DNA from: SAR202 cluster bacterium Io17-Chloro-G4 | GTDB taxonomy: Bacteria; Chloroflexota; Dehalococcoidia; Lucifugimonadales; UBA3495 | DNA length: 64,000 nt | Direction: 5' to 3' | NCBI GenBank assembly: GCA_002816455.1 | Contig: MUCR01000018.1 | Coordinates: forward strand, 1,855-65,854 | Shown: positions 26 through 31,354 of the stretch, piece by piece | How positions within the stretch are numbered: the stretch's first letter is position 1 | How the letters are laid out: every line of letters starts with the position of its first letter | Made by a program: the position numbers and the translations under genes | Notes under the pieces: model-generated | Told to the model about the DNA's origin: nothing | Databases searched by the model: none | Seen by the model: only the letters and a program-made list of their open reading frames with translations

Positions 26-949
26 CTAGCGGCCTACCGTCTTAATGGAATCACAACCCTCAAGCGCATCTCCGTCTTTGGTTAGTCCGCTGAGGCAGGC
101 CTCGGTATCCCCTTGCTGGATTCCGGTGTCTTGAGTGCGGAAATGGAGGACCATATCGGTGTCCCCATCTTTGTCCACATCCTCCAAATGGGCCTTGTTG
201 TGGGCTTCTGACGCCCCGTCCGGACCAAACAGTACGGTGGAAGCATCAATTGTGGTAGCGTCGAAATCGTCCATGGTGAGGACGGCTACCGGTATGACAC
301 CCTTGCCCCTGGGATTAATCGGATTGGTGTTGCTGCCCGGCTTAACATCGATATCTGCTTCAATAGATCCGCCGCCATCTGGCTCGTACTCCACCACGAA
401 GCCCTTGACGAGGTTGGTCACATCGTTCCAGTGACCGTCCCACACAAAAGACTCCTCTGGCGTAGACTGAGGCCCGCTGTGCCAGAAGTGTGCGTAGTCT
501 TCCCCACAGTTCGGACCGCATGAGTTGTTCGGCTCGCCCGACGACCAATTCGTGTAACTCCAGGCCTCACCCGTTACCCACTCCCATCCTCCATCGGCGG
601 TTCCATCCCCGCCCCCGGGCTGGTGGGCACCTATGTAGGCGCCTCCTTCGAATACACCATCAGCGTTTTCTATTGCTGTCGGCAAATGCTCCACGATAAA
701 AGCGGTCTCAGCTGCGGACGTGATGGTGGCCAAATGCCCACCCATCGCTTCAGCAGCGAGTTTCGCGTCAGTCCAGGTCAGCTTGTCATCTCCTCCCAAG
801 TACTCGTAGCAATGGCCAGTCGCATCGTCGCAGACGGGAATCGCGGTACTATGAGATGCTCCGGCGCTGCCTTCTAAAAATAGTGCCATCACTGCGACGA
901 TTGCCAGCAAAAGAGCGAAATACCTAGGCCTCGGGATGATTCCGGTCAT
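26..949 (-). CDS. secreted C-type lectin domain protein with C-terminal Asp-rich (Ca-binding-like) domain
   Basis: ORF 26..985. AAGGAGG just upstream of the ATG at 949 favours this internal start. Hydrophobic signal YFALLLAIVAVMALFLEGSAGA. CTLD hallmarks WTDAKLAAEAMGGHLATI, GEPNN (EPN) and HWNDV (WND). C-terminal DVDKDGDTD loop. Confidence 0.8.
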   Translation of the reverse strand: MTGIIPRPRYFALLLAIVAVMALFLEGSAGASHSTAIPVCDDATGHCYEYLGGDDKLTWTDAKLAAEAMGGHLATITSAAETAFIVEHLPTAIENADGVFEGGAYIGAHQPGGGDGTADGGWEWVTGEAWSYTNWSSGEPNNSCGPNCGEDYAHFWHSGPQSTPEESFVWDGHWNDVTNLVKGFVVEYEPDGGGSIEADIDVKPGSNTNPINPRGKGVIPVAVLTMDDFDATTIDASTVLFGPDGASEAHNKAHLEDVDKDGDTDMVLHFRTQDTGIQQGDTEACLSGLTKDGDALEGCDSIKTVGR

Positions 950-1131
950 AATTCCTCCTTCGATTTGGACGGAGCCTCTAAACACCGTGCCCCTGAGAAT
1001 CCTCCATAGCCAACCTGTTCGTTTTCATTATGTGTGATAAATTTGCCGCACACGAGTGGTAGAGTTCTATATTTATCCTCTAGAACATACGATCTTGATT
1101 TCGGGGAGGACGGGGAAACTAACAGTCGATA

Positions 1132-1268
1132 ACTGGACAGAAAGTGGAGGGATTCGTAACTACTCAAGCACAGCGTTGAGGTAAGGATGCATGCAATCCG
1201 CGTGCTCTCCCGCTGCGCTACACCCCGGCTGGGAATCCTGTGTGGATTTTGCGGAGTGAGTGTTCAAC
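1132..1268 (-). repeat. conserved 137-nt upstream element, copy A (promoter-like 5' end plus tRNA-like block), 5' of the lectin gene
   Basis: Aligns end to end with 2393..2530 at roughly two-thirds identity. Perfectly shared blocks: ACTGGACAGAAA, GTGCTCTCCCG, GGATGCA, TTTGCGG. The minus strand reads GGGGUGUAGCGCAGCGGGAGAGCAC...GUUACGAAUCCCUCCAC. Confidence 0.6.
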
Positions 1269-1358
1269 CGAGGGGCGCAACGTTCGTAGCGGGATAGAGG
1301 CTACAAATCCCCAACAGGACTAGTTCAACTAAATTGCCGTTCTCGGCGGGCAATTCCC

Positions 1359-2339
1359 TCACTGGATGTTGGTCAGGTCCACTTTGTTCAAGCCAGTCAA
1401 ATCGCCTAAACCGGCAGGCAATGCCGTCATCTGGTTATTTAGCAGTTTCAGCCAAGTCAACTCAGCCAAGTTGGCAATTTCGGCTGGCAATGCTGTCAGT
1501 TGGTTGTTAGTCAGGTCCAGGGTGGTAATTGCGCTCAGGTCGCCGATCTCAGGCGGCAACGCCGTGAGCCGATTGGAAGGAAGATCGAGCCTGGTTAAGC
1601 TGGCCAATTTGCCTATCTCTGGTGGCAACTCGGTCAACTGGTTGTGTTGCAAGTCCAGATTTATCAAGCTGGTCAGATTTCCTATCTCTAGGGGCAACAC
1701 CGACAGCCGGTTGTGACCCAAGCTCAGATGGGTGAGGGTGGTGAGGTGTCCGATCTCGGGAGGCAGTGACCTCAGCTGATTGCGTGACAGGCCCAGACTT
1801 GTCAGGCTGCCGAGGTTTCCTATCTCTGGTGGCAACTCGGTCAATTGGTTGTTAGCGAGGTGCAGCCTGGTCAAATTGCCTAGCACGCCTATTTCTGAAG
1901 GCAATACGGTCAACTGGTTGTTGGTCAGGAGCAGAATGGTCAGTCCGGTCAGGTTGCTAAGCTCCGGAGGCAATGCCGTCAACTGGTTGCGTTGCAGTTC
2001 CAACTCGGTCAGACCGGTCAGTTTACCTATCTCGGGGGGCAACTCCGTTAACTGGTTGTTGCTCAGGTCTAGCCTGGTGAAGCCAGTCAGGTTGCCTATC
2101 TCGGGCGGTAATGCCGACAACCGGTTGTATGACAGGTCCAACTTAGTCAAGTTCGTCAAGTTCCCGATGTCTGGGGGCAATGCCGTCAACTGGTTGTAAC
2201 GCAAGTCGAGTTCGGTCAGGCTGGTCAAGTCGCCTATCTCAGCGGGCAAGGTCTCCAAGTCTGCCCCGCCCAGCGATAGAATAGTCGTCCCATTACTCCG
2301 AGCTCTGATTATTATTTCGGCGAGTCTATCTTGGTCCAT
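1359..2339 (-). CDS. leucine-rich repeat (LRR) protein, about 13 tandem 23-aa repeats
   Basis: 326-aa ORF with repeating LxxLxxLxLxxNQLTxLPPEIGxL units (69-bp DNA period). No signal peptide or other domain is visible. Confidence 0.9.
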   Translation of the reverse strand: MDQDRLAEIIIRARSNGTTILSLGGADLETLPAEIGDLTSLTELDLRYNQLTALPPDIGNLTNLTKLDLSYNRLSALPPEIGNLTGFTRLDLSNNQLTELPPEIGKLTGLTELELQRNQLTALPPELSNLTGLTILLLTNNQLTVLPSEIGVLGNLTRLHLANNQLTELPPEIGNLGSLTSLGLSRNQLRSLPPEIGHLTTLTHLSLGHNRLSVLPLEIGNLTSLINLDLQHNQLTELPPEIGKLASLTRLDLPSNRLTALPPEIGDLSAITTLDLTNNQLTALPAEIANLAELTWLKLLNNQMTALPAGLGDLTGLNKVDLTNIQ

Positions 2340-2392
2340 ATCGGATCCTATTTCTTTGAACTTATAATCGCAAAGATTTTTAACCGCGTCTG

Positions 2393-2530
2393 ACTGGACA
2401 GAAAATGGAGTGGTGCGTAGCTACGGAGGCGCAGCGTGTAAGCCGGGATGCACGCAAACTAGGTGCTCTCCCGATGAGCAGCGCCCCCAGCGAAAAACCA
2501 GTGTAGAAATTTGCGGTGTGGGTTGTCAAC
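2393..2530 (-). repeat. conserved upstream element, copy B, 54 nt 5' of the LRR gene start
   Basis: Homologous to 1132..1268. The minus strand begins GTTGACA-N18-TACACT (sigma70-like). It then reads GGGGGCGCUGCUCAUCGGGAGAGCACCUAGUUUGCGUGCAUCC, which resembles the 5' half of tRNA-Ala(UGC). Confidence 0.6.
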
Positions 2531-2601
2531 AAAAATAAGGCCATTCTCCCGAGTCAAAGGGGCACCAAAGCAAGCTGTGGGCCATTTTGACTGACTCTGG
2601 A

Positions 2602-2898
2602 TTACGCCGCTGCGCCCTCACTGAGAAACGCGGCCGTAGTTTCCTGGTCCATTAAGGGATGGATCTCAAACTCCGCTGGCACCAATTCGAGCCAATGGCT
2701 TAACAGCCGATGCAATTCTTCAATCGACTCTACATCGAAAAGCGCTATGGCGCCCCGGCCAACTTTGGCGTACAACGTCCGGTCTTTTATCACCCCCTGT
2801 TCCATTAGAGGCCGCGCCCATTCCCACAACCGTTGTCGATTCGACCGTGCCTCCGAAGGGCGAGTTGGCGCTGGATTAGTGATTACCAGAAAGAGCAT
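2602..2898 (-). CDS. small muconolactone-isomerase-like / DUF3303-like protein
   Basis: GGAGGA lies 6 nt upstream of the ATG at 2898; the ORF track's longer 5' extension has no support. The pattern MLFLVI...ALFDVESIEELHRLL...PAEFEIHPL is typical of the small dimeric alpha/beta-barrel family. Confidence 0.6.
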   Translation of the reverse strand: MLFLVITNPAPTRPSEARSNRQRLWEWARPLMEQGVIKDRTLYAKVGRGAIALFDVESIEELHRLLSHWLELVPAEFEIHPLMDQETTAAFLSEGAAA

Positions 2899-3005
2899 AT
2901 TATCCTCCAATATCGTTCCATTCAGTCGCCGGGGGGTTCTGGAACCGCGTTGGATATAAATACCAAATACGGAGCTAGGTAAGGACAGAGCTGAAGGAGT
3001 GATAC

Positions 3006-3048
3006 ATGAAAATAGGAGGGCCAGCTCAGCTAGCCCTCCCATTTTCAT
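3006..3048. terminator. 16-bp hairpin, probable terminator after the rhodanese gene
   Basis: ATGAAAATAGGAGGGC-N11-GCCCTCCCATTTTCAT (15/16 complementary). A GC core is flanked by U-rich segments on either strand. Confidence 0.6.
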
Positions 3049-3152
3049 GTACATGGCCTGAGTGACGGGTGAAAATTGAATTAGTTAGGTCAACCGACGC
3101 CAAGATGGACTTTCCAACCGTCATTCCGCCATTCGAATAGCTTACTCTTCAC

Positions 3153-3545
3153 CTATGCCTGGGTCGGCAACCCAGCTTCCTTCCAACCCTTCATACCGCC
3201 GTCTATGTAGGTTACGTTTGTGAATCCCATCTCTTTGAGCGCTTGTGCCCCAAGCGAAGCCATGTGGCCAAGCCCTCAAGTCGTGATGATTTTTCGTGAA
3301 CGGTCTTGTAATCTTGGGTTGCGCAAGGGCTCGGGTACCTCCAAGTCTGCGCGTATGGGGAGAGTGCCCAGAGAAATCATCAAAACGTCAGGGGCCCTAT
3401 CGGTCTCTGGTACAGATTCCGCATCTCGGACTTCAATGAGAATAGCTTCCTCGTCATCTTGAAGGCTTTGGTAGGCCTCCATAGGGGTAACTCCGGTCAC
3501 TTCGGCTTTCGCCTCATTCACCATGTCCATCCAGCTTTTTGCCAT
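3153..3545 (-). CDS. single-domain rhodanese (sulfurtransferase) with in-frame TGA at the catalytic Cys position; candidate selenoprotein
   Basis: GAGGAGG lies 8 nt upstream of the ATG at 3545. The frame reads through TGA 3276..3278 into GLGHMASLGAQALKEMGFTNVTYIDGGMKGWKEAGLPTQA and ends at TAG 3153..3155. Total length is about 130 aa, typical for a rhodanese. Confidence 0.65.
3240..3256 (-). promoter_or_regulatory. SECIS-like hairpin downstream of the rhodanese UGA
   Basis: CGCUUG-GGGCA-CAAGCG starts 19 nt 3' of the UGA and has a G-rich apical loop. Confidence 0.45.
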
Positions 3546-4878: not shown

Positions 4879-7800
4879 CTAATCGGACAGAAAGCGGGGC
4901 AGCTTGAAAGGCTTTTCCTCAGGAGGAGGCGGAGGAGTGACCGAAACGGAGCGCACCCCTGTGGCAGGAGTATCCGCTGGTTTTCGATCAGTTGCAGGCT
5001 GGGACCTGGGGGCTGGTTTTTGGGATCCAGCATTTTTGGATCTGCCCAAAAGACGCTTCAATAGTTGGCCGATACCCTGGCCTACACCCTGGCCGTTACT
5101 TTTAGCCTTTTCTTTTGCTCCGTTATCCGCCTGGCTCCGCTCGTCTGAGGTGGCGATCTCCGGCGCACTCCTCCTTCGGGAAGCCCTCGGCTGGATTTCT
5201 ATTTCAGCTTTTGCTTTCTCTGCCGCTTCGGCCCGTGCTCCAATCTGCTCCACTTCTCGAGCTCGGTCCGAGAGTTGCTGTTCGAGTTCGGTTGTCTGTT
5301 GGGAGGCGTCTTCTAGTTGTTTAGTAAGCTGGAAATACAGGGTGGTCAGTCTCTTCCTATCTTTCTCCACCGTTTCAGACCTGGTCTGTAAGCCTTGGAC
5401 CGCTTGAGACTGGTCCGCAACCTGCCGCTCCAGGTGCGCTATCCGTTGGCTGCTTTCTTCAATCTGAGCGTGAAGCGCTGCCGCTCTTTCTTCTGCTTCT
5501 TCCTTCTGCCTCTGGAGATTGGTAATCTCTTGAGTGCGGGCCGAAAGCTGCCGATTCAAATCTGCTGTCTGTTGGCGGCCTTCTTCCAACTGGCCGCTTA
5601 AGACTTCTTTTTCCTTATCAGATGCTTCGGCCTGAGATTGGTGGTCTTGAATTTCTTGGCTGCGTGTCGAGAGTTCTTGTTCCAGTTGGGATACCCTTTG
5701 ACGCCCCTCTTCCAGTTGGGTATCCAGATTTTCCGACCTTTCTTCGGCCGCCAAAGCTCTCATTTCGAGGCTTTGAAACTCCTGACTTTGCTCCGATAGC
5801 CGCTGCTCCAGTTCCGTCACCGTCTGCTGTGCTTGTTCTAACTGGCTGGTGAGACTGAAATACTGGCTGGTCAGGTTGTCCCGCTCTCTCTCCGAAGCGA
5901 CAGTACGGGCCTCTAAGCTTTGAACGTCCTGAGCGCGGGCTGCTAGCTGCTGTTCCAACTCGGTGATACGCCTGCTGGCTTCTTCCGATTGGGCGCCCAA
6001 GGATTCGGCTTTTTCTTCAGCGGCGTTGGAACGGAGTTGGAGTTGCTTGACTTCTTGGTCACGGGCAGCCAGTTGCTGGTCTAATTCCGCGCTACGCTGC
6101 CGGGAAACTTCCAGTAATGCGCCCAAGTCGTCTCTGCTTTGCTCGGCGTCCAGTGCGCGTGCTTCAAGGTCTTGTACCTGTTGGCTGCGGTCCGCGAGTT
6201 GTTGGTCCAACTCGGTGACTCGTCGCCGGGTCGCGTCCAACTGGGTGTTTAGGTTGTCCCGTTCTTGCTGAACGCCTTCGGCACGGAGCTCGAGGTTTTG
6301 GATTTCTTCACTCCGCGCTGCGAGTTGTTGGTCCAATTCAGCCGCACGCTGGCGACCTTCATCTAATTGGCGGTTTAGGTCGTCCCTGTCTTTGTCGCTG
6401 GCCACTGCCCGTAATTCATGGCCCTGCACTTCCTGGATTCGAGCGATCAACTGTTGGTCTAGCTCGGACGCCCTCTGCCGCCCTTCTTCTATTTGCCGGG
6501 TCAGGTTATCCCGGTCTTTTTCTGCGGCTACGGCCCGAAGTTCCAGGGCTTGAATCTCCGTGACTCGGGTGGAGAGTTGTTGGTTCAGGTCGGTAGCCCG
6601 CTGAACTGTCTCCTCCAATTGGATGCTCAGTGTTTCCGAGCCTTCTTCCGCAGCAGATGCCCGTCGCTATAAAACTTGAATTTCCTGAATTCGAGCCGAA
6701 AGTTGCTCGTCCAGTTCCGTGGCACGCTGACGTCTTTCAGCAAGCTGGCTGTTGAGATTGTCCCGGTCCTTCTCAGAGGCTACGGCATGCAGTTCATGCT
6801 CCCGGATTTCTTGGCTTCGGGTCAGGAGTTGCTGGTCCAACTCAGTGGCGCTTTGGCGTCCTTCTTCCAACTGGACGGCGAGATTATCCCGGTCCCTCTC
6901 CGCCGCAACAACGCGCCGTTCCAGTCCTTGAATTTCCTGGGACTGGTTGGAACTCTGTTGGCCTATCTCTGTGGACCGTTGCAGCGCGTCCTCTAGTTGG
7001 GCGCTGAGAGCCTCAGAGGCTTCTTCCGCAGCAGATGCCCGCTGTTCGAGACCTTGGATTTCTTGAATGCAGACGAGAGCTGGTCGTCTAGCTCGGTTGC
7101 CCGTTGGCGTCTCTCGGAAAGTTGACTATTTAGGTTATCCCTGTCCTTCTCGGCGGCCACCGCCTGTAGCTCAAGGTCCCTGATTTCTTGATTGCGGACG
7201 GCAAGTTGCTGATCCAAGTCTTTGAGACGCTGGCCTCCGTCCTCAACCTGGCCGGAGAGACTGTCTTTGTCCTTTTCGGCGCCGGCGGCGCGTCGCTCCA
7301 GGCTCTGGAGTTCTTGGTTTCGGTCCGAGAGTTGTTGCTCCAGCCCGGCCAGCCGCTGTCGGCCTTCTTCCAATTGGGCGCCCAAATTTTCCGACGAGTC
7401 TTCCGCCGCACTGGCCCGCAGTTCAAGCCCCTGCACTTCTTGAGTTCGTTCCGAGAGTTGCTGGTCTAACTCGGTTGCTCTCTGGCGCCTTTCATCAAGC
7501 TGGCTGCTCAGATTATCCCGGTCTTTCTCGACGGCTACCGCATCCAGTTCTAGCGTTTGTATTCGCTGACCGCGTTCGGCTAACTGTTGCTCCAACGTCC
7601 CGATGCGTTGCCGGCCTTCCTCGGCAACGTTGTCCTTATCCCTCTCGGCCGCGACCGCTCGCTTATCCAAATCCTGCACTTCTTGCGTGCGTTCTGAGAG
7701 TTGCTGGTCAAGTTCGGCCACCCGTTGGCGTCTTTCGGAGAGTTGGCTGTTCAAGTTCTCTTGGTCTCTGCCATGAGCCACCGCTCGTAGCTCGTGCTCC

Positions 7801-7946
7801 CGAATCTGCTGGGTGAGTTCCAATATCTGTTGACCCAACTGTTCTTCGCGCTGGCGAAGAGCGTCCAGTTGACTTCTAAGGACTTCCGGGTCTTCGTGTT
7901 GCTCTGTCAAAGTGGTTCCCTGACGACCTGACGCATTAGCGGTCAT
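4879..7946 (-). pseudogene. giant 42-aa-repeat coiled-coil protein, interrupted by one in-frame TAG (6667..6669) and one 1-nt frameshift (about 7068..7073)
   Basis: Three track ORFs (6993..7946, 6667..6870, 4879..6618) carry the same ELDQQLSxRxQEIQxLELRAVAAEKDRDNLxxQLEEGRQRAx repeat. ORFs 2 and 3 share a frame across the TAG. ORF 1 rejoins if one base is restored in ..CTCTCGTCT^GCATTCAAGAAATCCAA.. Confidence 0.75.
5210..7840 (-). repeat. about 21 tandem coding repeats of 126 bp (42 aa, six heptads), with occasional 49-aa variants
   Basis: I counted 42 residues between successive (E/D)L(D/N/E)QQL motifs in several units. Confidence 0.8.
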
Positions 7947-9996: not shown

Positions 9997-10845
9997 TCAG
10001 CGCCCTTTAAATGATGGCGCCCGCTTTTCCAAAAAAGCCAACCGGGCCTCTTCGGCGTCTTCTGAACCGCCCAGGATCCCACCGGCGTTGGAGGTTAGCA
10101 CTGTGGTGGTTTCCAAAGAGCCGTCCATAGCGGCGCGCATGATGCGCTTGCTTACCCACTGCACCATGGGCGGTGTCCGCATGATCCGGTCGCACAAATC
10201 TCGAGTGGTCTGCTCCAATTCCTCGGCGGAAACTAGGTAGTTGAGCAGTCCCCAATCGTAGGCCCGTTGGGCGTCGAGATGCCCAGTGTAGGCGAACTCC
10301 AGGGCACGACCCAGGCCCGCCATCTTTGGCAGGTAGTAGCTTCCGCCATTTTCGAAAATCTGTCCCAGTTGCTGATAGCCGATGAAGCGGGTGTTTTCGC
10401 AACCCAGGCGAATGTCGCAGTGTAGGGCCATGTCCATGCCGGACCCCACGGCGGGCCCGTTAATCATGGCGATGGTGGGCTTTCGCACCTGAGAAATGTC
10501 CCGGTGGAGCTTGGTAAATCCGTGGAAGAAGTGCTCCCTAGCTGCATCCGGTCCTTCTTCGGAACCTCGGTTGCCAATGAAATTCTCGCCGGTGACGGAT
10601 GGGTCGTTGTCCCGCCGCATGTCTGCCCCGGAGCAGAATCCCCGGCCCACGCCGGTTAAGACGATAACCCGTATGTTGGGGTCGTCGTCCCCAGCCCGCA
10701 TGTACTCGCCGACTTTGGCCACAGTGCCGTTTTCCTGGGAGTTGCCAACCAAAGCATTCATCCTCTCGGGGCGGTTGAATTTTATCCAGAGAATGCCGTT
10801 GTCCTCGGGCTCATAAAGTAGGTAGTCCACCAATTTAGGCGCCAT
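9997..10845 (-). CDS. enoyl-CoA hydratase/isomerase (crotonase) family protein
   Basis: Motifs VIVLTGVGRGFCSGADM and KPTIAMINGPAVGSGMDMALHCDIR. AAGGAG RBS. Confidence 0.9.
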   Translation of the reverse strand: MAPKLVDYLLYEPEDNGILWIKFNRPERMNALVGNSQENGTVAKVGEYMRAGDDDPNIRVIVLTGVGRGFCSGADMRRDNDPSVTGENFIGNRGSEEGPDAAREHFFHGFTKLHRDISQVRKPTIAMINGPAVGSGMDMALHCDIRLGCENTRFIGYQQLGQIFENGGSYYLPKMAGLGRALEFAYTGHLDAQRAYDWGLLNYLVSAEELEQTTRDLCDRIMRTPPMVQWVSKRIMRAAMDGSLETTTVLTSNAGGILGGSEDAEEARLAFLEKRAPSFKGR

Positions 10846-11110: not shown

Positions 11111-12307
11111 ATGCGAGAAGTTGCGATAGTTTCACCTGTGCGCACCGCCGTGGGTAGCTTTGGGGGCACCTTGCGCGGCGTTTCCGCAGCCGACTTGGCC
11201 ACCACTGTCATCACTGAAACTCTGGACCGCAGCGGCCTGGACCCGGCCAAGGTTGACGACGTTATTCTGGGTCACGGCTATCCCAGCGGCGAGAACCCGG
11301 CAATAGGCCGCCTGGCTGGACTTAAAGCCGGCCTTCCGATCGAGGTGCCCGGTTACCAGCTGGACCGTCGCTGCTCCTCCGGCCTCCAAGCAATCCTCAA
11401 CGCCTCTATGCTGGTGCAGACTGAAAATGCCGACGTGGTAATCGCCGGCGGAGTGGAGAGCATGAGCAATGCCGAATATTATGTAAACGAGTCCCGCTGG
11501 GGCGCTCGGTTCGGCTCGATGACCCTGCACGACCGTTTAGCCAGGGCCAGGGAAACCATCTCCCCCGAAGAGCGGTTCGGCTTCATTTCCGGCATGATCG
11601 AAACGGCCGAGAACCTGGCCAAACAGTACGAGATTTCCAGAGAAGAGCAGGACGAATACTCCTTGCGCAGCCACCAGCGGGCTGTGGCCGCCGTTGAAGG
11701 CGGTAATTTCGATTCCCAAGTGGTGGGCGTGCCGGTGCCACAACGCCGAGGAGACCCGATCCCCTTTGATAAAGACGAAGGTCCCCGGGGCGACACCACA
11801 TTGGAAGCTTTGGGCAAATTGCGTCCCATTTCGACAGACGGCACCGTAACGGCCGGCAACGCCAGCAGCCAGAATGACGCAGCTTCGGTCTGCCTGGTCG
11901 TTGCTGCGGACAAGCTGGAAGAATTGGGGCTAACGGCCATGGGTTATCTCCGTGGTTGGGCCGTCACCGGTTGCCATCCGGCCTACATGGGCATCGGCCC
12001 CGTATCGGCGGTAGCCAAAGTAATGGACAAAGTTGGCATGTCTCTGGGGGACATGGACTTGATCGAGTTAAACGAAGCTTTCGCCGCACAAGTATTGGCC
12101 GTCTTGCGAGAGTGGAAGCTGCCCAATGAGGACAATTTGAACGTCAACGGCTCTGGCATTTCCCTGGGCCATCCCATCGCCGCCACAGGCGCTCGCATTC
12201 TGACAACCCTGCTCCACGAAATGGAGCGCCGGGATGTCCAGTTCGGCTTGGAAACCATGTGCGTTGGAGGCGGCCAAGGCGTGGCCGCCCTGTTCGAGAG
12301 AAAGTAG
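11111..12307 (+). CDS. acetyl-CoA acetyltransferase (thiolase)
   Basis: AAAGGAG RBS before the ATG at 11111. Motifs MREVAIVSPVRTAVGSFGG, QLDRRCSSGLQAI, NGSGISLGHPIAATG and CVGGGQG. Confidence 0.9.
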   Translation: MREVAIVSPVRTAVGSFGGTLRGVSAADLATTVITETLDRSGLDPAKVDDVILGHGYPSGENPAIGRLAGLKAGLPIEVPGYQLDRRCSSGLQAILNASMLVQTENADVVIAGGVESMSNAEYYVNESRWGARFGSMTLHDRLARARETISPEERFGFISGMIETAENLAKQYEISREEQDEYSLRSHQRAVAAVEGGNFDSQVVGVPVPQRRGDPIPFDKDEGPRGDTTLEALGKLRPISTDGTVTAGNASSQNDAASVCLVVAADKLEELGLTAMGYLRGWAVTGCHPAYMGIGPVSAVAKVMDKVGMSLGDMDLIELNEAFAAQVLAVLREWKLPNEDNLNVNGSGISLGHPIAATGARILTTLLHEMERRDVQFGLETMCVGGGQGVAALFERK

Positions 12308-12410
12308 GCCCTGGCGGGCCTGCCCCGTTTTCGGGTCCGCAAAAGAGCGCCACATTCAACGTATTAACTGAAAGTTCTAACACAGGCAAATAAATCTATG
12401 GGAGGATCAC

Positions 12411-13355
12411 ATGCCCGAAGTTTTTGGCAGCGGAGAATTTACTTATACATTTGTTGATGGCTGGGCCAAGTTGCCCGGCGGAGTGACGTTCAAGGAGTGC
12501 CCAGGAGTGGCGGTGGACTCCAGAGATAACGTCTATGTTCTAACACGGGGTGACCATCCTATCATCGTCCTAGACAAAGACGGCAACTACATCCGGTCCT
12601 TCGGTCAGGGGCTTTTTAGCGATGACCGCACCCACGGATTATACATCGGCCATGATGACTCGCTGATGGTTGCCGACGACGGCATTCATACAATTCAGAA
12701 GTTTAACTCTGAGGGCGAGAAGACCATGGAAATCGGTGAGCGCAACCACCCAGCGCCCCGGTGGAGTGGACAGCCCTTTAACCGACCCACGTCGGCCGCC
12801 ATCATGCCCAGTAACGGCGACGTTTATGTCTCCGACGGCTACGGCAACTCCCGCATCCACGTCTACACCGGCTCGGGAGAGTACAAGTTCTCTTGGGGCA
12901 GCCCGGGAATCGACGCCGGCCAGTTCATCCGGCCTCACAACATCGCCGTTGACGCCGATGACAAAGTCTACGTGGTGGACCGGGAAGCCCACAGGATTCA
13001 GATTTTCGACCCCAAAGGCAACTTCATCACCATGTGGAACAACATTCACCGGCCCGACTCCATGGTTCTCTGGAAGGACCACATTTACGTGGGCGAGTTG
13101 AACGGCATGGGCGGCGTGGACGATGCGCCTGGGCTGGGACACCGGGTAACTGTTTACGACCTCAACGGCAATCGGGTCTGCATGTTCGGCTCCGATGAAG
13201 AAGGAGAAGGCCCGGGGCAGTTCATTGCGCCCCACGGCATCGCCGTCGACTCAAAAGGCGACATTTACGTGTCCGAAGTTTCCTACACGATCCGCGGCCG
13301 CCACTTGGACCCGCCTCGGGAGATGCGCAGCTTGTCCAAGTACGCAGCGAAGTAA
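12411..13355 (+). CDS. NHL-repeat six-bladed beta-propeller protein (peptidyl-hydroxyglycine lyase-like)
   Basis: Repeated GQFxxPHxIAVDxxxxVYVxD motifs and SDGYGNSRIHVY. GGGAGGA RBS. Confidence 0.85.
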   Translation: MPEVFGSGEFTYTFVDGWAKLPGGVTFKECPGVAVDSRDNVYVLTRGDHPIIVLDKDGNYIRSFGQGLFSDDRTHGLYIGHDDSLMVADDGIHTIQKFNSEGEKTMEIGERNHPAPRWSGQPFNRPTSAAIMPSNGDVYVSDGYGNSRIHVYTGSGEYKFSWGSPGIDAGQFIRPHNIAVDADDKVYVVDREAHRIQIFDPKGNFITMWNNIHRPDSMVLWKDHIYVGELNGMGGVDDAPGLGHRVTVYDLNGNRVCMFGSDEEGEGPGQFIAPHGIAVDSKGDIYVSEVSYTIRGRHLDPPREMRSLSKYAAK

Positions 13356-13368
13356 ACGACGACTAAGT

Positions 13369-13460
13369 CCCCCTTAATCCCCCTTTACAAAGGGGGAATT
13401 ACCATTCCGCCAGTTATATTGGGAGCCATTAGCCCCCCTTTGTAAAGGGGGGTTGGGGGA
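13369..13460. repeat. pair of inverted about 30-nt repeats, each containing a C5-6TTT(A/G)(C/T)AAAG5-6 hairpin
   Basis: CCCCCTTTACAAAGGGGG (13379..13396) and CCCCCCTTTGTAAAGGGGGG (13433..13452). The flanks CCCCCTTAATCC and GGTTGGGGGA are also inverted. Confidence 0.6.
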
Positions 13461-13495
13461 TTTCGGACCCTTAGACCTAACGGAGGAAATCCCTT

Positions 13496-14554
13496 TTGCA
13501 AGACCTTGGCGAGACAACGACTGTCCAATGGGACTCAGCCTTAGAGGCCATCGAGCGGTGCTATGAACTGGGCTGGACCGACGGCCTGCCCGTGGTGCCG
13601 CCCACGGTGGACCTAGTTAACCAATTCATAAACGCCGCAAAAAGGGCCTCTTCAGAAGTTGTTGGGCAAATTCCCGAGCGCCGACGGGACATCACCGTGG
13701 GAAAAGTAGCAGCCAACGCAGCGATGGCCGGTTGTTTGCCGGAATACATGCCGGTGTTGCTGGCGGCGGTGGAAGCGATGCTGGACCCCGTGTTCAACCT
13801 GGTAGGGCCATCCTCTAGCATGGGCGGTTCGGCCATACTCTCCATCGTCAATGGCCCCGTCGCCAAGGAGATCGGCCTGAATTCCCGGAACAATCTCTTC
13901 GGTCCGGGCAACCGGGCCAACGCCACCATTGGCCGGGCGGTGCGCTTAGTTCTGATGAACGCCTGCGCCGCTGTTCCCGGTCTGTATGACCGCAGCGTTA
14001 TCGGCCATCCCGGCAAGTACACCTACTGCATTGCCGAAGCGGATACAGAAACCCACTGGACACCCCTTCACGTGGAACGGGGCTACTCCCTGGACCAGAG
14101 CACAGTGACCGTGTTTGCTGGCGAGAGCCCGAGGCAAATCCGGGCGGTGGGCAAGCCCGAAGCGATTCTCTACGCCATCGCCGACGTGAGCTCGACCTTG
14201 GGCACCAACATGTCCACTTCGGGCTCCGTGGGAGACACGGACGTTGGAATTCGGCAAGGGCAAATCGTAGTGACCATAGCCGGGAACTCGGACCTTTGGA
14301 AGGACTGGACCAAGGAGCAAGTCCGAGGCTACTTGCACGCCAACATCCGGCGCTCCGTGGCCGACCTGAAAAACGCTCAAGTGCTGGCCGGGGATGTGGA
14401 ACCGGAAGACGCTGAAAAATTTCTGCCTCTGGTGCCTGAACCGGAAGACATACTTCTGGTCTTTGCTGGTGGCGAGGAGTCCAACATGTCCTCGGTTATA
14501 CCCAGTTGGGGTCCTAAAGTCGCTTGCACTGCCGTTACCAAACAGGTACGCTAA
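13496..14554 (+). CDS. conserved hypothetical protein (GWTDGLPVVPPT motif), partner of the UGSC gene
   Basis: TTG start with GGAGGA 8 nt upstream. 352 aa with coding-like composition. I recognise no domain. Confidence 0.75.
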   Translation: MQDLGETTTVQWDSALEAIERCYELGWTDGLPVVPPTVDLVNQFINAAKRASSEVVGQIPERRRDITVGKVAANAAMAGCLPEYMPVLLAAVEAMLDPVFNLVGPSSSMGGSAILSIVNGPVAKEIGLNSRNNLFGPGNRANATIGRAVRLVLMNACAAVPGLYDRSVIGHPGKYTYCIAEADTETHWTPLHVERGYSLDQSTVTVFAGESPRQIRAVGKPEAILYAIADVSSTLGTNMSTSGSVGDTDVGIRQGQIVVTIAGNSDLWKDWTKEQVRGYLHANIRRSVADLKNAQVLAGDVEPEDAEKFLPLVPEPEDILLVFAGGEESNMSSVIPSWGPKVACTAVTKQVR

Positions 14555-14620
14555 ATAGGCTATCACCCACTGGCCGCAACGAATGACATGGTCAGCCCAA
14601 CCGGATTTTTAGGAGAGAAC

Positions 14621-15163
14621 ATGGCACAGGGAACAGACCACGAGTTAGTCAACCCTACTACCCAAGCCATCGTGGCGCCTTTCGACGGCGCTCCCCGTTT
14701 GCCTTCTTTGGCCGGCACCAGGCTGGGCATCATAGACGACAGTAAGCGGAACGCCGACGTGCTGTTGGAGGAGCTGGCCGAGTTGCTCCGCACGTGGTAC
14801 GAGATCTCCGAAGTGAGGTGGCACCGCAAGCCCAGCGCCTCCAAGCCAGCCGACCCAGAGGCAATTAGGGAACTGGTGGAGAATTGCGACTCGGTGATTG
14901 TTGCGGTGGGTGATTGAGGGTCCTGCAGTGCGTGCAGTGTGCACGACGGAATCCACGTTGAGAACGCAGGCATCCCTTCCGCCACCATCTGCACGGACCG
15001 GTTCGTTCCCACAGCCGCCGGTATGGCCAAGATGTGGGGAGCGCCCGACTACCCGACGATCTTCACGGCCCATCCCATCGAAAACCTGAGCCGGGAGCAG
15101 CTCCGGGCTCGGGCCGAGGAGTTGGCCCCCCAAGTTGTTCAGGTATTGATCGGCGACGTCTAA
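14621..15163 (+). CDS. UGSC-family (seleno)protein with in-frame TGA at 14915..14917
   Basis: AGGAGAG RBS before the ATG at 14621. Track ORFs 14588..14917 and 14939..15163 share a frame. The junction reads VIVAVGD-U-GSCSACSVHDGIHVENAG. Confidence 0.75.
14931..14945 (+). promoter_or_regulatory. SECIS-like hairpin downstream of the UGSC UGA
   Basis: CGUGCA-GUG-UGCACG starts 13 nt after the UGA. An alternative is CUGCA-GUGCG-UGCAG at 14923..14937. Confidence 0.4.
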
Positions 15164-15185
15164 CTAGCATTTTTACCGGGATTTA

Positions 15186-15244
15186 GCCACGGAGATACAG
15201 AGCTTTTTTTAAATTAGCTCCGTGTTCTCTGTGCCTCTGTGGCA
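15186..15244. terminator. imperfect hairpin between convergent genes, member of the CRCAGAGGCRCAGAG repeat family
   Basis: GCCACGGAGATACAGAGC ... TCTCTGTGCCTCTGTGGC (14/18 complementary) with a T7 run in the loop. Confidence 0.5.
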
Positions 15245-15253
15245 ACCTCGTCC

Positions 15254-15421
15254 TTAAGTCCGTATTTGAGGCGGCAGCAGGTTGGGAATGGCGTCCTCTA
15301 TGGGGTAGGTTTCGTCGCACTTACCGCAGAATAAGGAGCCGGTAATAACTTCCTCACCCTCTTCTGCCTCGACCTTCAGTTCCAGGTCCCCCTTGCACAT
15401 CGGACAAGCCAGGATTTCCAT
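15254..15421 (-). CDS. Trm112-family small zinc-ribbon protein
   Basis: MEILACPMCKGDL...LFCGKCDETYPIEDAIPNLL. The start at M22 of the track ORF is chosen from typical family length; the upstream extension is not excluded. Confidence 0.7.
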   Translation of the reverse strand: MEILACPMCKGDLELKVEAEEGEEVITGSLFCGKCDETYPIEDAIPNLLPPQIRT

Positions 15422-15489
15422 TAAGCTTTTCTTCAAGTTTCCACCTGTTCTGTTAGCTTTCATCCACAAGCGTTCAGGTATCAACCTTA

Positions 15490-15969
15490 TTAGCCTAGGC
15501 TGTCCTCGAACAGGGCGCTTAGGACATCAGCCAACCCGAATACGACCAAGCCGATTATCAACACCGCAGCGGTACCCGTCAAGCTGGACCTTGCTTTCCC
15601 GAGCCATCCGCTTGAGGTGGGAAGGTCTTCCGGGTAACTCCGCGGGTTCAGAAACCTGACGATGTAGAACATGTAGCAGGCCAAGACGATTTTTACCACC
15701 AACACAGCGACATAGGCTAAAGTTATGTTATCTTCCGTCAGCCTGGCTACCGAGAGAATAACGCCGGTTAGTAGCAAAACGCTAATGGCCGTGTTGACCA
15801 GACCCCGGTACTCCACGCCCATGAACCGGCCTGTCTGCTCCGGCGCCGGCGCCTGCCGGTTGGCAGGCCGCCAGACCATCAGGTAAAAAATACCGCCGCC
15901 GACCCATGCGACAGCGCCAATGGCATGGCCCCAGCGAATAGCAACCAAAATCCAGTCTAAGGGGTTCAT
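15490..15969 (-). CDS. integral membrane protein (4 TM, CopD/DUF-like), unknown function
   Basis: Four hydrophobic segments, WGHAIGAVAWVGGGIFY, TAGGAAA RBS. Confidence 0.7.
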   Translation of the reverse strand: MNPLDWILVAIRWGHAIGAVAWVGGGIFYLMVWRPANRQAPAPEQTGRFMGVEYRGLVNTAISVLLLTGVILSVARLTEDNITLAYVAVLVVKIVLACYMFYIVRFLNPRSYPEDLPTSSGWLGKARSSLTGTAAVLIIGLVVFGLADVLSALFEDSLG

Positions 15970-16023
15970 AATTTCCTAGTCATCTTTTTTTCGGTTCGTC
16001 CCGTTGAGCGACTTTCAATGACT

Positions 16024-16173
16024 ACCGTTCGCGGTGAACCCTGCAGTTCCGCTCGTGGTGGGCCCCCAGCTCCGCTCCTGGTGAGCCCCTAGCCTCCGCT
16101 CGCGGTGCAACCTTTGCGCTCCACTGATGGTGAGCACCTCGGCTCCGCTCGTGGTGAGCTTGTCGAACCATTC
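16024..16173. repeat. six tandem degenerate 23 to 25-nt repeats (consensus CTCCGCTCGTGGTGAGC-N7)
   Basis: Units start at 16024, 16047, 16070, 16094, 16119 and 16143. The last unit extends into CCGCTCGTGGTGAGCTTGTCGAACCA, which recurs at 24496..24521. Confidence 0.8.
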
Positions 16174-20736: not shown

Positions 20737-21945
20737 CTACTGGGTCACTTCGCGCTGCTTGAAGTCATTAACTTGGTCCATGCTATAACCCAAGCCGAGC
20801 AAGACGTCTTGGGTATGCTGGCCGGTGACGGAGCCGACATGGCGCGCTTTCCCCGGTGTGTCCGACATGTGGAATGGGATGCCTATCTGGGAAACTTTCC
20901 CTTGAGGAGCCCCAGGCGCTTCAACCTCCACCACCATGCCCCGGTGGACTGTGTGAGGGTCGTTCAGCGCTTCTTCCATGCTATATACCTTACCCACGGA
21001 GATGTTCTGGTCTTTCAAGTACTCAAACCAATCGTCCCTGGTGCGGGTGACAAAGGTTTCCTCAAGGAACTTGGTGATTTCGTCCCGCTCTGGACCTTCC
21101 GCTTCTTGGCTGTCAACCAGGTCCTCACGGCCTAGAACCTTACAAAGATTTACCCAGAACCAAGGCTCTATAGCTGCGATTGTCAGATATTTGTTGTCCT
21201 TGGTGCGGTAGACGTTGTAATAGGTGGCCCCCCCGTTAAGGCGGCTCATGCCCCGTTTGGGAGACCGTCCCTCGCTATAAAACCCGGATACTACCGCCGC
21301 CAACATATACATCACACCTTCGGTCATGGCAATGTCCAGGTATTGGCCCCTCCCCGTGTTGTGACGCGCCATCAGGGCGGAGAGCACCGCAATAGCTCCG
21401 CATAGGCCGCCTCCGGCATAGTCGGCCAACAGGTTCAGTGGAATGGCTGGCTTTTCTTCCTCCGAATAGCCGATCATGCTCAACACACCGGAAAAGGAAA
21501 TATAGTTGATGTCGTGGCCAGCCATATCGGCATACGGACCGGTTTGGCCGTATCCGGACACCGAGCAATAAACTGCCCTGGGATTAATCTCTTTGACCTT
21601 TTCGTAGCCCGCCCCAAGCCGGTCCATGACCCCTGGTCTAAATCCCTCCACAATCACATCAGCGTCCTTAGCCAGGCTGTAGAAAATCTCCCTGGCTTCC
21701 GGCTCTTTCAAGTTCAGGGCCAGGCTGCGTTTGTTCCGGCGCAAAGCGTCGTAGGTTGCGTGCTTACGCTCATCTTCCGGGGTGGCAATGCCGCTGACGA
21801 CTTTTTCATAAGCGGCGCGCTCTCCGGTCATGGGACGTTCCAGCATCAGGACATCGGCGCCCAAGTCCCCTAAAATCATGGTGCAGAACATGCCCGGGGC
21901 GTTGCGGCAAAAGTCCAGGACCTTGATACCCTCTAGAGCTTGCAT
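20737..21945 (-). CDS. family III (CaiB/BaiF) CoA-transferase, stand-alone
   Basis: AAGGAG RBS before the ATG at 21945. Motifs KVLDFCRNAPGMFCTMILGDLGADV and GYGQTGPYADMAGHDINY, with the catalytic Asp present. Confidence 0.85.
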   Translation of the reverse strand: MQALEGIKVLDFCRNAPGMFCTMILGDLGADVLMLERPMTGERAAYEKVVSGIATPEDERKHATYDALRRNKRSLALNLKEPEAREIFYSLAKDADVIVEGFRPGVMDRLGAGYEKVKEINPRAVYCSVSGYGQTGPYADMAGHDINYISFSGVLSMIGYSEEEKPAIPLNLLADYAGGGLCGAIAVLSALMARHNTGRGQYLDIAMTEGVMYMLAAVVSGFYSEGRSPKRGMSRLNGGATYYNVYRTKDNKYLTIAAIEPWFWVNLCKVLGREDLVDSQEAEGPERDEITKFLEETFVTRTRDDWFEYLKDQNISVGKVYSMEEALNDPHTVHRGMVVEVEAPGAPQGKVSQIGIPFHMSDTPGKARHVGSVTGQHTQDVLLGLGYSMDQVNDFKQREVTQ

Positions 21946-22164
21946 AGGGAGGCTCCTTGGTAATATTTGAATGAAAGAGGCAATGTGAGAGACATTATAG
22001 CGGAGATAATGGCAGAGTTGAGTGTAGCCACCGCATGCTGTTGGCTGCCATGATGCATCGCCCATTGCGAGGGGCTATAATCTCTTTGCCTCGAAGAGAG
22101 CCGGGCAATCGCCGGCATAACTAATCCATCTTTTTGATTAATTTAGCTTGGACAGGAGTGCACC

Positions 22165-29540: not shown

Positions 29541-30494
29541 ATGGCTTTATTTTTAAAAGACGATGACGTGCGCCAATGCGTTTCGATGGACGAAATGCTT
29601 GATGCAATCGAAACGATGCAGCGGCATTACGGCAACGGAGAAGCTTACAACTTGCCCCGGCGCAAGATTATCGCAAGCGGTGGCATGCTTTCTGTAATGG
29701 GCGGAGGCCTTTACTACCAAGGCCTGCTTGGAGTAAAAACCTACACGGTGGTCAAAGGGACTTATTCTTTTCAAGTCAGCTTATATGACGCCGAGACGGG
29801 CAAACTCGTTTGCTACACCCAGGCCAATAGGTTAGGCCAGTTACGGACCGGCGCCACTTCCGGGGTGGCTGTAAGGCACCTAGCCAAATCCCACGCAACA
29901 ACCATCGGCATCATAGGGACAGGCGGTCAAGCCCCGACACAGCTTGAGGCGGTATCCAAAGTCCGAAACATCAAGAAAGTGCTAGCTTATAGTCGCAATA
30001 CCGAACGGCGGGAAGCTTTCGCTCGCTCTGCTAGCGAAACTTTGGGAATCGACGTCGAAGCTGCCGAAAGCAATCGTGAAGCGATTGAGGGCGCCGACAT
30101 CATTATCTGCATAGCCGCGACCACGACGCCGGTATTGGAAGGCGACTGGCTATCCGATGGGAGCACTGTCATCGGCGCCGGACCCACCAGTTGGCGCCAC
30201 CAGGAAGTAGACGACGCCACGTTCTCCAAGGCCGACAAGATTTTCGTCGATTCTCCCGAACAGGCCACCGTGGAGGCGGGCGACATGGCCAGCGCTGTAG
30301 ACCGGGGCCTGCTGCAGTGGAGTCAATTATTGGAGTTGCGCCATGCCGTGGCTGGCAAGGTCAAGGGCCGGGAAAACGACCAGCAGATTGTCTACGCCAA
30401 GCTCATGGGCACGGGTGTTGCGGATGTGGCGGCGGCTGCCCTAGCCTACGAGAAGGCCAAGGCTAAAGGAGTTGGAATGGAGATGGACTGGTAG
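29541..30494 (+). CDS. ornithine cyclodeaminase / mu-crystallin family protein
   Basis: Motifs LRTGATSGVA and IGIIGTGGQA; 317 aa. Confidence 0.85.
   Translation: MALFLKDDDVRQCVSMDEMLDAIETMQRHYGNGEAYNLPRRKIIASGGMLSVMGGGLYYQGLLGVKTYTVVKGTYSFQVSLYDAETGKLVCYTQANRLGQLRTGATSGVAVRHLAKSHATTIGIIGTGGQAPTQLEAVSKVRNIKKVLAYSRNTERREAFARSASETLGIDVEAAESNREAIEGADIIICIAATTTPVLEGDWLSDGSTVIGAGPTSWRHQEVDDATFSKADKIFVDSPEQATVEAGDMASAVDRGLLQWSQLLELRHAVAGKVKGRENDQQIVYAKLMGTGVADVAAAALAYEKAKAKGVGMEMDW
30433..30491 (+). repeat. left copy of a about 60-bp imperfect direct repeat (3' end of the OCD gene)
   Basis: Encodes AAALAYEKAKAKGVGMEMDW. It aligns with 31230..31289, which encodes AAALAYEKAKGMRVGLEMDW. Confidence 0.75.
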
Positions 30495-30516
30495 GTAGCG
30501 CTCTGAAAACCTTGCT

Positions 30517-30545
30517 TTGACATATTTATGTCATCTATATATGAT
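30517..30545 (+). promoter_or_regulatory. vapBC promoter with operator palindrome, probably giving a leaderless mRNA
   Basis: TTGACA-N17-TATGAT, with the ATG 7 nt after the -10 box. The palindrome TGACAT-ATTT-ATGTCA overlaps the -35 box. Confidence 0.55.
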
Positions 30546-30552
30546 TTGATAT

Positions 30553-30807
30553 ATGAGAACCACAATTAGATTGGACGACCAGCTTCTCACCGAAGCTAAG
30601 TTACTCGCCGCCTCCACAGGGCGTAGCCTCACATCGGTTATCGAAGACGCTCTGCGGGAGATGTTAGCACGTAGGCAAAAATCAGGCCGCCAGGAACCGA
30701 TCAAGTTGAAGACCGTCCCTGGGAAGCTTCTGCCGGGAATCGACCTAGACGATTCGGCGGCACTGCTTGATATCATGGAACAGAACGATGGACCTGCTCG
30801 ACGTTAA
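30553..30807 (+). CDS. vapB: VapB-type ribbon-helix-helix antitoxin
   Basis: MRTTIRLDDQLLTEAKLLAASTGRSLTSVIEDALREML. Confidence 0.8.
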   Translation: MRTTIRLDDQLLTEAKLLAASTGRSLTSVIEDALREMLARRQKSGRQEPIKLKTVPGKLLPGIDLDDSAALLDIMEQNDGPARR

Positions 30808-31219
30808 CGTATTGGTCTATGCCCACAAACAGGGCTCGCCAAACCATCGAGACTACCGCCTTTGGTTGGAAGAGTTAGTCCAGGGCGATGAGGCTTATGG
30901 AATATCCGATATTGTGTTGAGCGGTTTTCTTCGCATAGTTACTCATCCAAGCATTTTCCGCCCTCCCAGTGATATAGGCTCGGCATTGGAGTTCGCGACC
31001 CGGGTGCGGGAGCGGCCCAACTGCGTGCAAATATATCCAGGCCCCCGCCATTGGTCAATCTTCACCAGGCTTTGCCAACACGTTAGCGCCAAAGGCAACC
31101 TGGTTCCCGACGCCTACTTTGCCGCACTGGCGATTGAATCGGGCAGCGTATGGGTCACATCAGACAGGGACTACGGCAAATTCCCCGGCCTGAAGTGGCG
31201 GCATCCTCTCGGAAGCTGA
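30788..31219 (+). CDS. vapC: VapC PIN-domain toxin
   Basis: MDLLDVNVLVYA...VPDAYFAALAIESGSVWVTSDRDY. Overlaps the vapB stop. Confidence 0.85.
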   Translation: MDLLDVNVLVYAHKQGSPNHRDYRLWLEELVQGDEAYGISDIVLSGFLRIVTHPSIFRPPSDIGSALEFATRVRERPNCVQIYPGPRHWSIFTRLCQHVSAKGNLVPDAYFAALAIESGSVWVTSDRDYGKFPGLKWRHPLGS

Positions 31220-31229
31220 AAAAGCCTCG

Positions 31230-31289
31230 GCAGCCGCGCTAGCCTACGAGAAAGCCAAGGGTATGCGTGTTGGATTGGAGATGGACTGG
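31230..31289 (+). repeat. right copy of the direct repeat (relic OCD C-terminus)
   Basis: See 30433..30491. Here there is no stop after MDW, so the relic is non-functional. Confidence 0.75.
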
Positions 31290-31354
31290 AAGGCGGGGGT
31301 GGAATCTAACTGGAATCTACCTGTTATAGGCTGTGCAGACAAAAAGGATCGGGA

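Follow-up and report, generated by a model that had tools for sequence, protein, structure and literature searches.

Two repeats flank an LRR gene

The window analysed here is a 64,000-nt stretch of the SAR202 cluster bacterium Io17-Chloro-G4 (contig MUCR01000018.1). It is the reverse complement of the end of L001, a 193-kb Mediterranean metagenome scaffold. Near the start of the window, two related elements, copy A and copy B, lie on the minus strand together with two genes for eukaryote-like proteins. The gene between copies B and A (1359..2339) encodes a leucine-rich repeat (LRR) protein of 326 aa (Pfam LRR_8, E = 3.5e-61). The gene at 26..949, between copy A and a third copy, copy C, encodes a C-type-lectin-domain protein of 307 aa (Pfam Lectin_C, E = 3.5e-7). 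A DUF3303 gene on the same strand (2602..2898; Pfam PF11746) served as the anchor gene in the comparisons described below. An earlier note, made from the letters alone, had described A and B as tRNA-like repeats in the same orientation. It had offered three readings: a shared promoter with a structured leader, a mobile tRNA-derived repeat, or direct repeats of the att type that arose when the LRR cassette was inserted.

The minus-strand sequences of copy A (1132-1268) and copy B (2393-2530) were aligned globally, and 98 of the 138 columns were identical (71%). The alignment score of 153 compares with 27.9 +/- 8.7 for 1000 shuffles (z = 14.4), which confirms the coordinates and the shared orientation of the two repeats. 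Besides the element copies, a scan of the window found no other 137-nt stretch comparable to A and B. The distances to the genes also held: copy A lies 183 nt from the lectin ATG (949) and copy B 54 nt from the LRR ATG (2339). The perfectly conserved blocks remarked on in the earlier note (runs of 12, 11, 7 and 7 nt) are what is expected of randomly placed mismatches at 71% identity, as 2421 and 2265 of 5000 permutations matched the observed runs.

At its full extent, copy B covers 2373..2536 (minus strand; nhmmer E = 5e-50), and the LRR start codon lies 34-54 nt downstream of its end. It begins with a promoter-like -35 box, TTGACA (2529-2524), and a -10 box, TACACT (2505-2500), continues with the 5' half of a tRNA-Ala from G1 to the anticodon loop (~2488-2452), and ends in a non-tRNA arm, X (~2451-2373). 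Copy A covers 1113..1272 (minus strand; nhmmer E = 1e-50) and has the same composition, with a decayed promoter (TTGAAC, 1267-1262; CACACA, 1244-1239), a tRNA-Ala 5' half (~1226-1191) and arm X (~1190-1113). The promoter-like starts ascribed to both copies fared differently: a sigma-70 promoter scan accepted TTGACA-N18-TACACT of copy B (2529-2500) but rejected TTGAAC-N17-CACACA of copy A, in which the -10 criteria failed.

Descent from a tRNA-Ala(UGC) gene

Both cores aligned best to tRNA-Ala among 25 E. coli tRNAs, with scores of 55-56, and none of 300 shuffles, each scored against its own best-matching panel tRNA, came up to that score. The loci of relatives were found by using DUF3303 homologs as anchors, and the comparison comprises four populations. 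One of them is represented by a 2.4-Mb SAR202 contig (L044/L045) that shares the thiolase-ECH-Amdase-DUF3303 synteny with the window. In L044, an LRR ortholog is directly followed by a canonical tRNA-Ala(tgc) gene, detected by ARAGORN at 11777-11851; this gene has G3:U70 and A73, and its CCA is encoded. The promoter of this gene, TTGACA-N18-TACACT, has the same hexamers and spacing as copy B, and the element profile matches the L044 promoter plus tRNA 5' half with E = 7e-17. The likeness to tRNA-Ala(UGC) pointed out in the earlier note is thus one of descent, as evidenced by the tRNA panel and by a genuine gene at the syntenic locus.

The homology to this gene has a sharp limit. Over the stretch that starts at the -35 box and closes with the anticodon loop, identity to the L044 tRNA gene was 78% for copy A, 75% for copy B and 91% for a hybrid like A in a third population, L048. 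In copy B, the 79-nt 5' segment was 75% identical to the L044 tRNA-Ala locus and the following 85 nt 46%; in copy A, the X segment was 42% identical to that locus. Across A, B and the L048 hybrid, the 85 nt after the anticodon loop were 42-46% identical, which is the level of unrelated sequences. The drop in identity indicates that A and B are chimeras of a tRNA promoter and 5' half followed by X. The L048 hybrid stays nearly identical to L044 until the anticodon loop is complete, and X begins with the very next base. In none of the three hybrids does the tRNA homology reach more than slightly past the anticodon loop, a crossover site recorded in the Islander survey (PMC4383910).

Copy A, downstream of LRR, holds the position of the L044 tRNA-Ala gene. 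Upstream of the -35 box, the sequence GTTGCGCC..CTC is common to copy A, L044 and L048 and is not found in copy B. Judged by their sequences, A and B are chimeric remnants of a real tRNA-Ala(UGC) gene living at this SAR202 locus, not tRNA mimics.

Further copies at the locus

A profile built from A and B matched a third copy in L001 at 12428-12505 (E = 6e-9), 89 nt past position 1 of the window. This copy C is partial and extends over L001 12428-12517, after the lectin terminator hairpin; it consists of only the 3' two-thirds of the element. Since it faces the 3' end of a convergent luciferase-like gene, it is the leader of no gene. A relic, copy D, lies upstream of the DUF3303 gene (2968..3045, minus strand; nhmmer match 2968-3036, E = 0.012 in 12 kb), and its 5' part is now a terminator-like hairpin (GGAGGGC...GCCCTCC). 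The closest relatives, L038, L039 and L040, carry a better-preserved copy in the D position, with promoter-like and 5'-half-like parts (E = 3e-8 to 4e-7). The two repeats of the earlier note are therefore joined by C, just outside the window, and by the relic D; none was found away from the locus in the 64-kb window or in 220 kb of other SAR202 loci.

Three of the copies are core-plus-X units without the tRNA 5' half: copy C, L044 10507-10599 and L048 10525-10608. The core of ~17 nt, CACCTG.TTTGCATGCA, corresponds to the anticodon loop together with the 5' strand of its stem, and these units have nothing else in common with the tRNA. Each of the three is preceded by a homologous hairpin and left arm. 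The X copies within the window are 61-67% identical to each other and up to 67% identical to X in other genomes. As they are no closer within the window than across genomes, they argue against recent local duplication and for independent arrivals. Four more contigs are 99.5-99.9% identical to the L001 scaffold, and these five near-identical contigs (L001-L005) showed no single-nucleotide polymorphism in A or B and no presence/absence variation.

The distal end of X (window 1113-1145; L001 12495-12517) has two (A/T)GTTATC-like direct repeats 10 nt apart in A, C and the L048 hybrid. In the partial copies of L044 (10580-10612) and L048 (10600-10645), 12-15-nt tandem duplications replace them. The X-end repeats could be candidate arm-type recombinase binding sites.

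Loss of the tRNA fold

ARAGORN found no tRNA genes in the 64-kb window. Run on A, B, the L048 hybrid and the L038 upstream copy, it made no call with its thresholds at default or lowered to 95% or 80%, and the calls that appeared at 60% were nonsense; the L044 tRNA-Ala gene was detected as the positive control. Rfam searches covered the entire window at gathering thresholds, and a 1.8-kb region as well as two segments of ~116 nt at E <= 10. No family reached the gathering level in the window, and the tRNA model had no match at E <= 10, even in the ~116-nt searches. Matches to U12, mir-224 and the S10 leader fell far under the thresholds and were dismissed as chance. Pairing of the anticodon stem is absent in every copy, and so is the T arm. 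The statement that neither copy folds as a complete cloverleaf is therefore borne out by ARAGORN and by the Rfam tRNA model.

The minimum-energy folds of the two copies were no better than those of shuffles (z = +0.75 and -1.0). The RNAalifold consensus energies were -15, -5 and -2.8 kcal/mol for two, three and six copies, with negligible covariation. ARAGORN and a covariation analysis had both been suggested beforehand as checks; the former yields no tRNA down to 80% of its thresholds and the latter nothing useful across two, three or six copies. Two structural details hold for one copy only. The GGGGGCGC/GCGCCUCC helix is present in the minimum-energy fold of copy B, but copy A pairs in another register. 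The T-loop-like GUUACGAAUCC is found in copy A and is specific to it.

These results bear directly on the possibility that the element is a functional tRNA-like RNA (an RNase P/RNase Z signal, a tRNA mimic or a regulatory tRNA half) kept for its fold. The 5' half does keep a good acceptor 5' strand and D-arm (GCUC AUCGGGA GAGC in B), and three copies end in CUCCA, like C69-U70-C71-C72-A73 of tRNA-Ala. However, CUCCA also occurs in the L044 partial unit, which has no 5' strand to pair with, and is missing from the L048 hybrid. Together with the negative ARAGORN and Rfam tRNA searches, the missing T arm and the unpaired anticodon stem, folds that are no better than shuffles and a weak six-copy consensus free of useful covariation leave this reading largely refuted, and we regard it as extremely unlikely. 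A structured leader of the RNase P-mimic type, as the earlier note had it, is not supported either: no cloverleaf was recognised, no structure is conserved, and copy C is followed by no gene. A structured cis-regulatory leader would have covarying structure and always lie upstream of a gene; no such structure was seen, and copy C faces a convergent gene.

Cargo and segment variation in related populations

In L044, the order is DUF3303, the partial element at 10507-10599, the LRR ortholog (77% nt identity) and the tRNA-Ala gene. L048 has a hybrid like A at the tRNA position and other DNA downstream, and in both populations the LRR ortholog (77% nt) occupies the same place, between the partial element and the tRNA-Ala gene or hybrid. 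Three different cargos thus follow the same tRNA position: the intact tRNA of L044 is followed by E2/ThiF/JAB genes and transposases, the L048 hybrid by TPR and terminase genes, and the window hybrid by the lectin gene.

In the closest relatives (L038, L039 and L040; DUF3303 91% identical), DUF3303 is followed by the convergent luciferase-like gene. L038 and L040 have a terminator between the two genes and lack a 2,754-bp segment, B-LRR-A-lectin-C, with a clean break; in L039 the junction is masked by runs of N. In a blastn comparison of L001 with L038, 9440-9804 and 12551-12851 are contiguous in L038. The left boundary of the 2.75-kb segment lies at 2534..2543 (minus strand), where homology to the relatives breaks after GAGAATGGCC (ends 2539), and the right boundary lies outside the window, at L001 12555/12556. 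TGGCC stands at both ends of the segment in the window lineage. Presence or absence at the same site, with differing cargo in relatives, is accordingly seen across L038, L040, L044, L048 and the window, as is expected of an island.

The orthologs of the luciferase-like gene are 82-92% identical, and they and the DUF3303 homologs are labelled SAR202 cluster, Dehalococcoidia or Chloroflexota. When the luciferase-like gene was used as the anchor, synteny was not kept, and the 13 loci obtained (222 kb) contained neither element nor tRNA.

The lectin gene is absent from the L044 and L048 loci. Its nearest full-length homolog is only 45% identical, and lectin homologs on other contigs (L015, L016) are without the element. 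The gene is intact only in the window version and broken in five of six near-identical contigs: a 1-nt deletion at 887 affects L002, L004 and L005, and substitutions at 799 and 784 affect L001 and L003, where gene callers split or shorten the gene. The lectin gene may be decaying, or the differences may be assembly errors.

The DNA next to the tRNA position in the relatives has features of its own. Downstream of tRNA-Ala, L044 12094-20297 holds prokaryotic E2, ThiF (E1-like), JAB, GIY-YIG and DUF1156 genes and a DDE_5 transposase, and this island has the look of a defence cluster based on ubiquitin-like conjugation. Another DDE transposase gene (DDE_Tnp_1) is located at L044 7966-9666, on the upstream side of DUF3303. 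In L048, the region after the hybrid (11900-16076) begins with 1.7 kb without open reading frames (ORFs) of at least 80 aa, followed on the opposite strand by genes for a TPR protein and a small terminase (Terminase_2), and may be a degraded prophage at the tRNA site.

Possible promoter capture by the cargo genes

The hybrids would place a strong tRNA-gene promoter and a common leader of ~150 nt before LRR and lectin, and could by this capture co-express both genes. This idea is compatible with an origin of the copies as scars and can hold in addition to it. Copy B has the hexamers and spacing of the genuine L044 tRNA promoter. Both copies are sense-oriented upstream of a gene with no predicted terminator between, and the sequence ahead of the LRR gene yielded no further promoter-like site. 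There is also an annotated precedent for a tRNA promoter driving an mRNA in E. coli, thrU-tyrU-glyT-thrT-tufB.

Against this, the -10 box of copy A has decayed to CACACA and lost its key T residues, no structure is conserved in the leader, no gene follows copy C, and five of the six near-identical contigs carry a broken lectin gene. Moreover, the LRR genes of L044 and L048 are preceded by a terminator hairpin and core-X, without a tRNA promoter, indicating that such a promoter is not needed for this gene family and that its use is not general there. Joint expression of both genes from captured promoters is therefore conceivable but doubtful. The shared-promoter part of the leader proposal survives as a possibility for copy B but not for copy A. 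Given the intact promoter, the lack of a terminator between and the lack of another promoter-like site, it is plausible that the tRNA promoter of copy B now transcribes the LRR gene. Capture is unlikely for copy A, with its decayed -10 box and the broken lectin gene behind it.

Mobile repeats and cassettes as unlikely readings

The architecture of the locus, with single genes that each lie between sites of ~100-150 nt, all oriented alike, and with a terminator ahead of the site in the core-X units, would also suit a mobile tRNA-derived repeat resembling a short interspersed nuclear element (SINE) or a miniature inverted-repeat transposable element (MITE), or an integron-type cassette array with attC-like sites. 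Such elements are recognized by many dispersed copies with terminal repeats or target-site duplications in the first case; here, copies occur only at this locus. An nhmmer model found none off-locus in the 64-kb window or in 220 kb of other SAR202 loci. Exact-pattern scans of 185,579 species genomes and of JGI metagenomes returned chance matches or nothing. Terminal inverted repeats are lacking, and the sites do not form palindromes, their ends being unpaired in the folds. No RYYYAAC/GTTRRRY pair was seen in the element sequences, and no intI was found. We therefore consider this explanation very unlikely, and the SINE/MITE reading of the earlier note is not supported, as no dispersed copies were found in the window, the other SAR202 loci, one genome-collection scan and two metagenome scans.

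The candidates met in these searches were all set aside. The integron attC was rejected on sequence and folding, there being no paired R''/R', L''/L' palindrome and no intI. The genome-collection scan for GGGAGAGCAC-N48-68-TTCTGTCCAG gave 9 matches, all chance on inspection, in a collection that apparently is without the source organism's own genome. The metagenome scans for GCAC..TTGC.TGCATCC..GTAG..AC and TTGCAT.CATCCCTC..TGTGCTACC found nothing. In a scan of viral contigs for the core-X junction, two related contigs shared only 21 nt, in apparent coding sequence, and this was taken as chance.

A probable integration hot spot at a tRNA gene

The joining of a tRNA 5' half to a foreign arm at the anticodon loop, the core-only units and the varied cargo lead us to read the copies as site-specific recombination junctions. 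Copies A and B are probably the fossil remains of junctions resembling attachment sites, at a tRNA gene that was a hot spot of integration, and the LRR and lectin genes would be islets of one gene each between such junctions. The third reading of the earlier note, att-like repeats from insertion of the LRR cassette, is the one favoured here. The note had named a genuine tRNA-Ala gene nearby as the finding that would turn the other readings aside, and one is present at the syntenic L044 locus.

Recombination would have exchanged DNA segments at a core that they share, situated in the anticodon loop. A and B would be the hybrid junctions and C a core-plus-arm unit, with LRR and lectin as the islets between them. 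A site-specific recombinase acting in trans would have made the junctions. As a speculative example, a circle with promoter-5'half-core-X plus LRR might insert into a pre-existing hybrid or core, and a circle with terminator-arm-core-X plus lectin at another existing core. The divergence of the cores in A, B and C suggests that the sites are probably inactive now and would thus be fossils. Both B-LRR-A and A-lectin-C contain one cargo gene each and nothing else, that is, att-type repeats flank a segment without recombination or transfer genes.

Several findings weigh against an integration hot spot. Pfam scans of 46 window ORFs (LRR, lectin, neighbours and the main long ORFs) revealed no integrase, recombinase or transposase, and hence no integrase within an island; nor was a recombination gene found beside the element in related loci. 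A simple integration would be expected to leave a displaced tRNA 3' half, but the window, L001 and the fetched part of L048 contained none, nor did they yield a T arm or additional cores. Among A, B and C, 3-5 of the 17 core positions are not the same. No single integration gives two full hybrids and then a partial copy, so the order hybrid-LRR-hybrid-lectin-partial requires that at least two events, or illegitimate recombination, be assumed. The TGGCC microhomology fits a deletion in L038/L040 as well as an insertion in the window lineage. Finally, the comparison rests on four populations, and the collection scans used exact patterns, which diverged copies could escape.

A variant of the hot-spot reading is that SAR202 has a tRNA-gene-based cassette exchange that is functionally integron-like. 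LRR, lectin and possibly DUF3303 may then travel as small circles with a core, an X arm of ~80 nt and a terminator, and the X arm may carry its two GTTATC-like direct repeats one helical turn apart. If this were true, a recombinase encoded elsewhere would insert circles at any core-bearing site, and insertion behind a tRNA promoter would express the cargo. We consider such a system unlikely.

Other features of the window

A rhodanese-like ORF (3142-3545, minus strand) has an in-frame TGA at 3277-3279, exactly at the position of the active-site cysteine (...RKIITT*GLGHMASLGAQALKEMGF...). A stable hairpin follows directly after this TGA (-23.5 kcal/mol, z = -2.9). In L001-L003 and also in the relative L038, the ORF was called as two genes of 89 + 36 aa. 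From these features, the ORF is a candidate selenocysteine rhodanese with a putative bacterial selenocysteine insertion sequence (SECIS) element.

Just upstream of the locus, 4879-7946 (minus strand) encodes two large coiled-coil proteins with repeats of period 126 nt (42 aa). Their Pfam matches, to CENP-F, tropomyosin and crescentin-like families, are weak, and L048 has conserved them in part. At 42962-48094 (plus strand), four ORFs of 406-408 aa stand in tandem and share internal direct repeats of families D6 and D8; the first, the only one scanned, is a family III CoA-transferase, and another gene of this family lies at 20737-22065. Such an expansion of CoA-transferase paralogs would be typical of SAR202. 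The gene content of the window includes F420-linked enzymes, the four tandem putative CoA-transferase III genes, thiolase and enoyl-CoA hydratase, and agrees with the SAR202, Dehalococcoidia or Chloroflexota labels of the orthologs. At 30430-31293, a 66-nt direct repeat (83% identical) flanks a PIN-domain gene (30767-31219), and the region may consist of duplicated toxin-antitoxin modules.

Significance and comparison with known systems

That tRNA genes are landing sites for foreign DNA is textbook biology, and the main use of the finding is therefore to dispose of a false lead, since the repeats are not a new regulatory RNA of the tRNA-like kind. The kind of feature is already well known; the example is new and comes from a poorly studied marine lineage. 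SAR202 bacteria are abundant in the deep ocean and were cultivated only recently, and to our knowledge little is known of their mobile DNA. The locus documents a SAR202 integration hot spot, as we read it, at tRNA-Ala(UGC) downstream of the DUF3303 and LRR genes, and it shows the gain, loss and degradation of eukaryote-like LRR and lectin genes there. It would also be a clear case of the rarer displaced, promoter-bearing 5' half, a configuration that can leave a strong promoter aimed at cargo.

Two familiar arrangements resemble the locus in part. As in E. coli thrU-tyrU-glyT-thrT-tufB, a tRNA-gene promoter lies upstream of a protein gene in the same orientation; unlike in that operon, the tRNA part is cut at the anticodon loop and cannot mature, and co-transcription is putative. 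Integron cassettes are likewise promoter-less single genes between same-orientation recombination sites of ~60-140 nt. In contrast to integrons, the locus has no attC palindrome or core-site pair, no intI and no attI, and its sites are derived from a tRNA gene.

The anticodon loop is the commonest crossover position of tyrosine integrases that target tRNA genes. Reiter (1989) and Williams (2002) are said to have described tRNA-gene islands, their tyrosine integrases and crossover in the anticodon loop. In the Islander survey, integration splits the target tRNA gene and the fragments mark the ends of the island (PMC4383910). The anticodon loop was the crossover site in 2083 of 3919 islands, and the rarer configuration with a displaced 5' fragment accounted for 159 of 3919; the survey also records tandem arrays and damaged islands (PMC4383910). 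The locus differs from such islands in several respects. There is no integrase inside or nearby, and each islet measures ~1.2 kb and holds a single gene. What is retained of the tRNA gene is its 5' half, promoter included, unlike in most islands (the rarer form, 159/3919). Instead of an intact tRNA at one end and a displaced same-orientation fragment at the other, the window holds neither an intact tRNA nor a displaced 3' half; all copies have the same orientation, the intact tRNA-Ala occurs only in the relative L044, and the core-adjacent arm does not restore the tRNA. What the locus shares with tRNA-gene islands is the tRNA-gene target, the breakpoint in the anticodon loop, direct repeats of tRNA sequence bounding the insert, varied cargo at the same tRNA position in relatives, and tandem junctions.

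The cis-mobilizable elements (CIMEs) offer a further parallel. CIMEs are att-flanked, integrase-less remnants that stand in tandem with integrative and conjugative elements (ICEs) at tRNA-Lys or fda sites in streptococci. CIMEs have been documented to be mobilised in trans, whereas the att cores here have diverged and are probably fossils. Like CIMEs, the islets are bounded by att-type sites and have no recombination genes of their own, and CIME arrays accrete at one hot spot.

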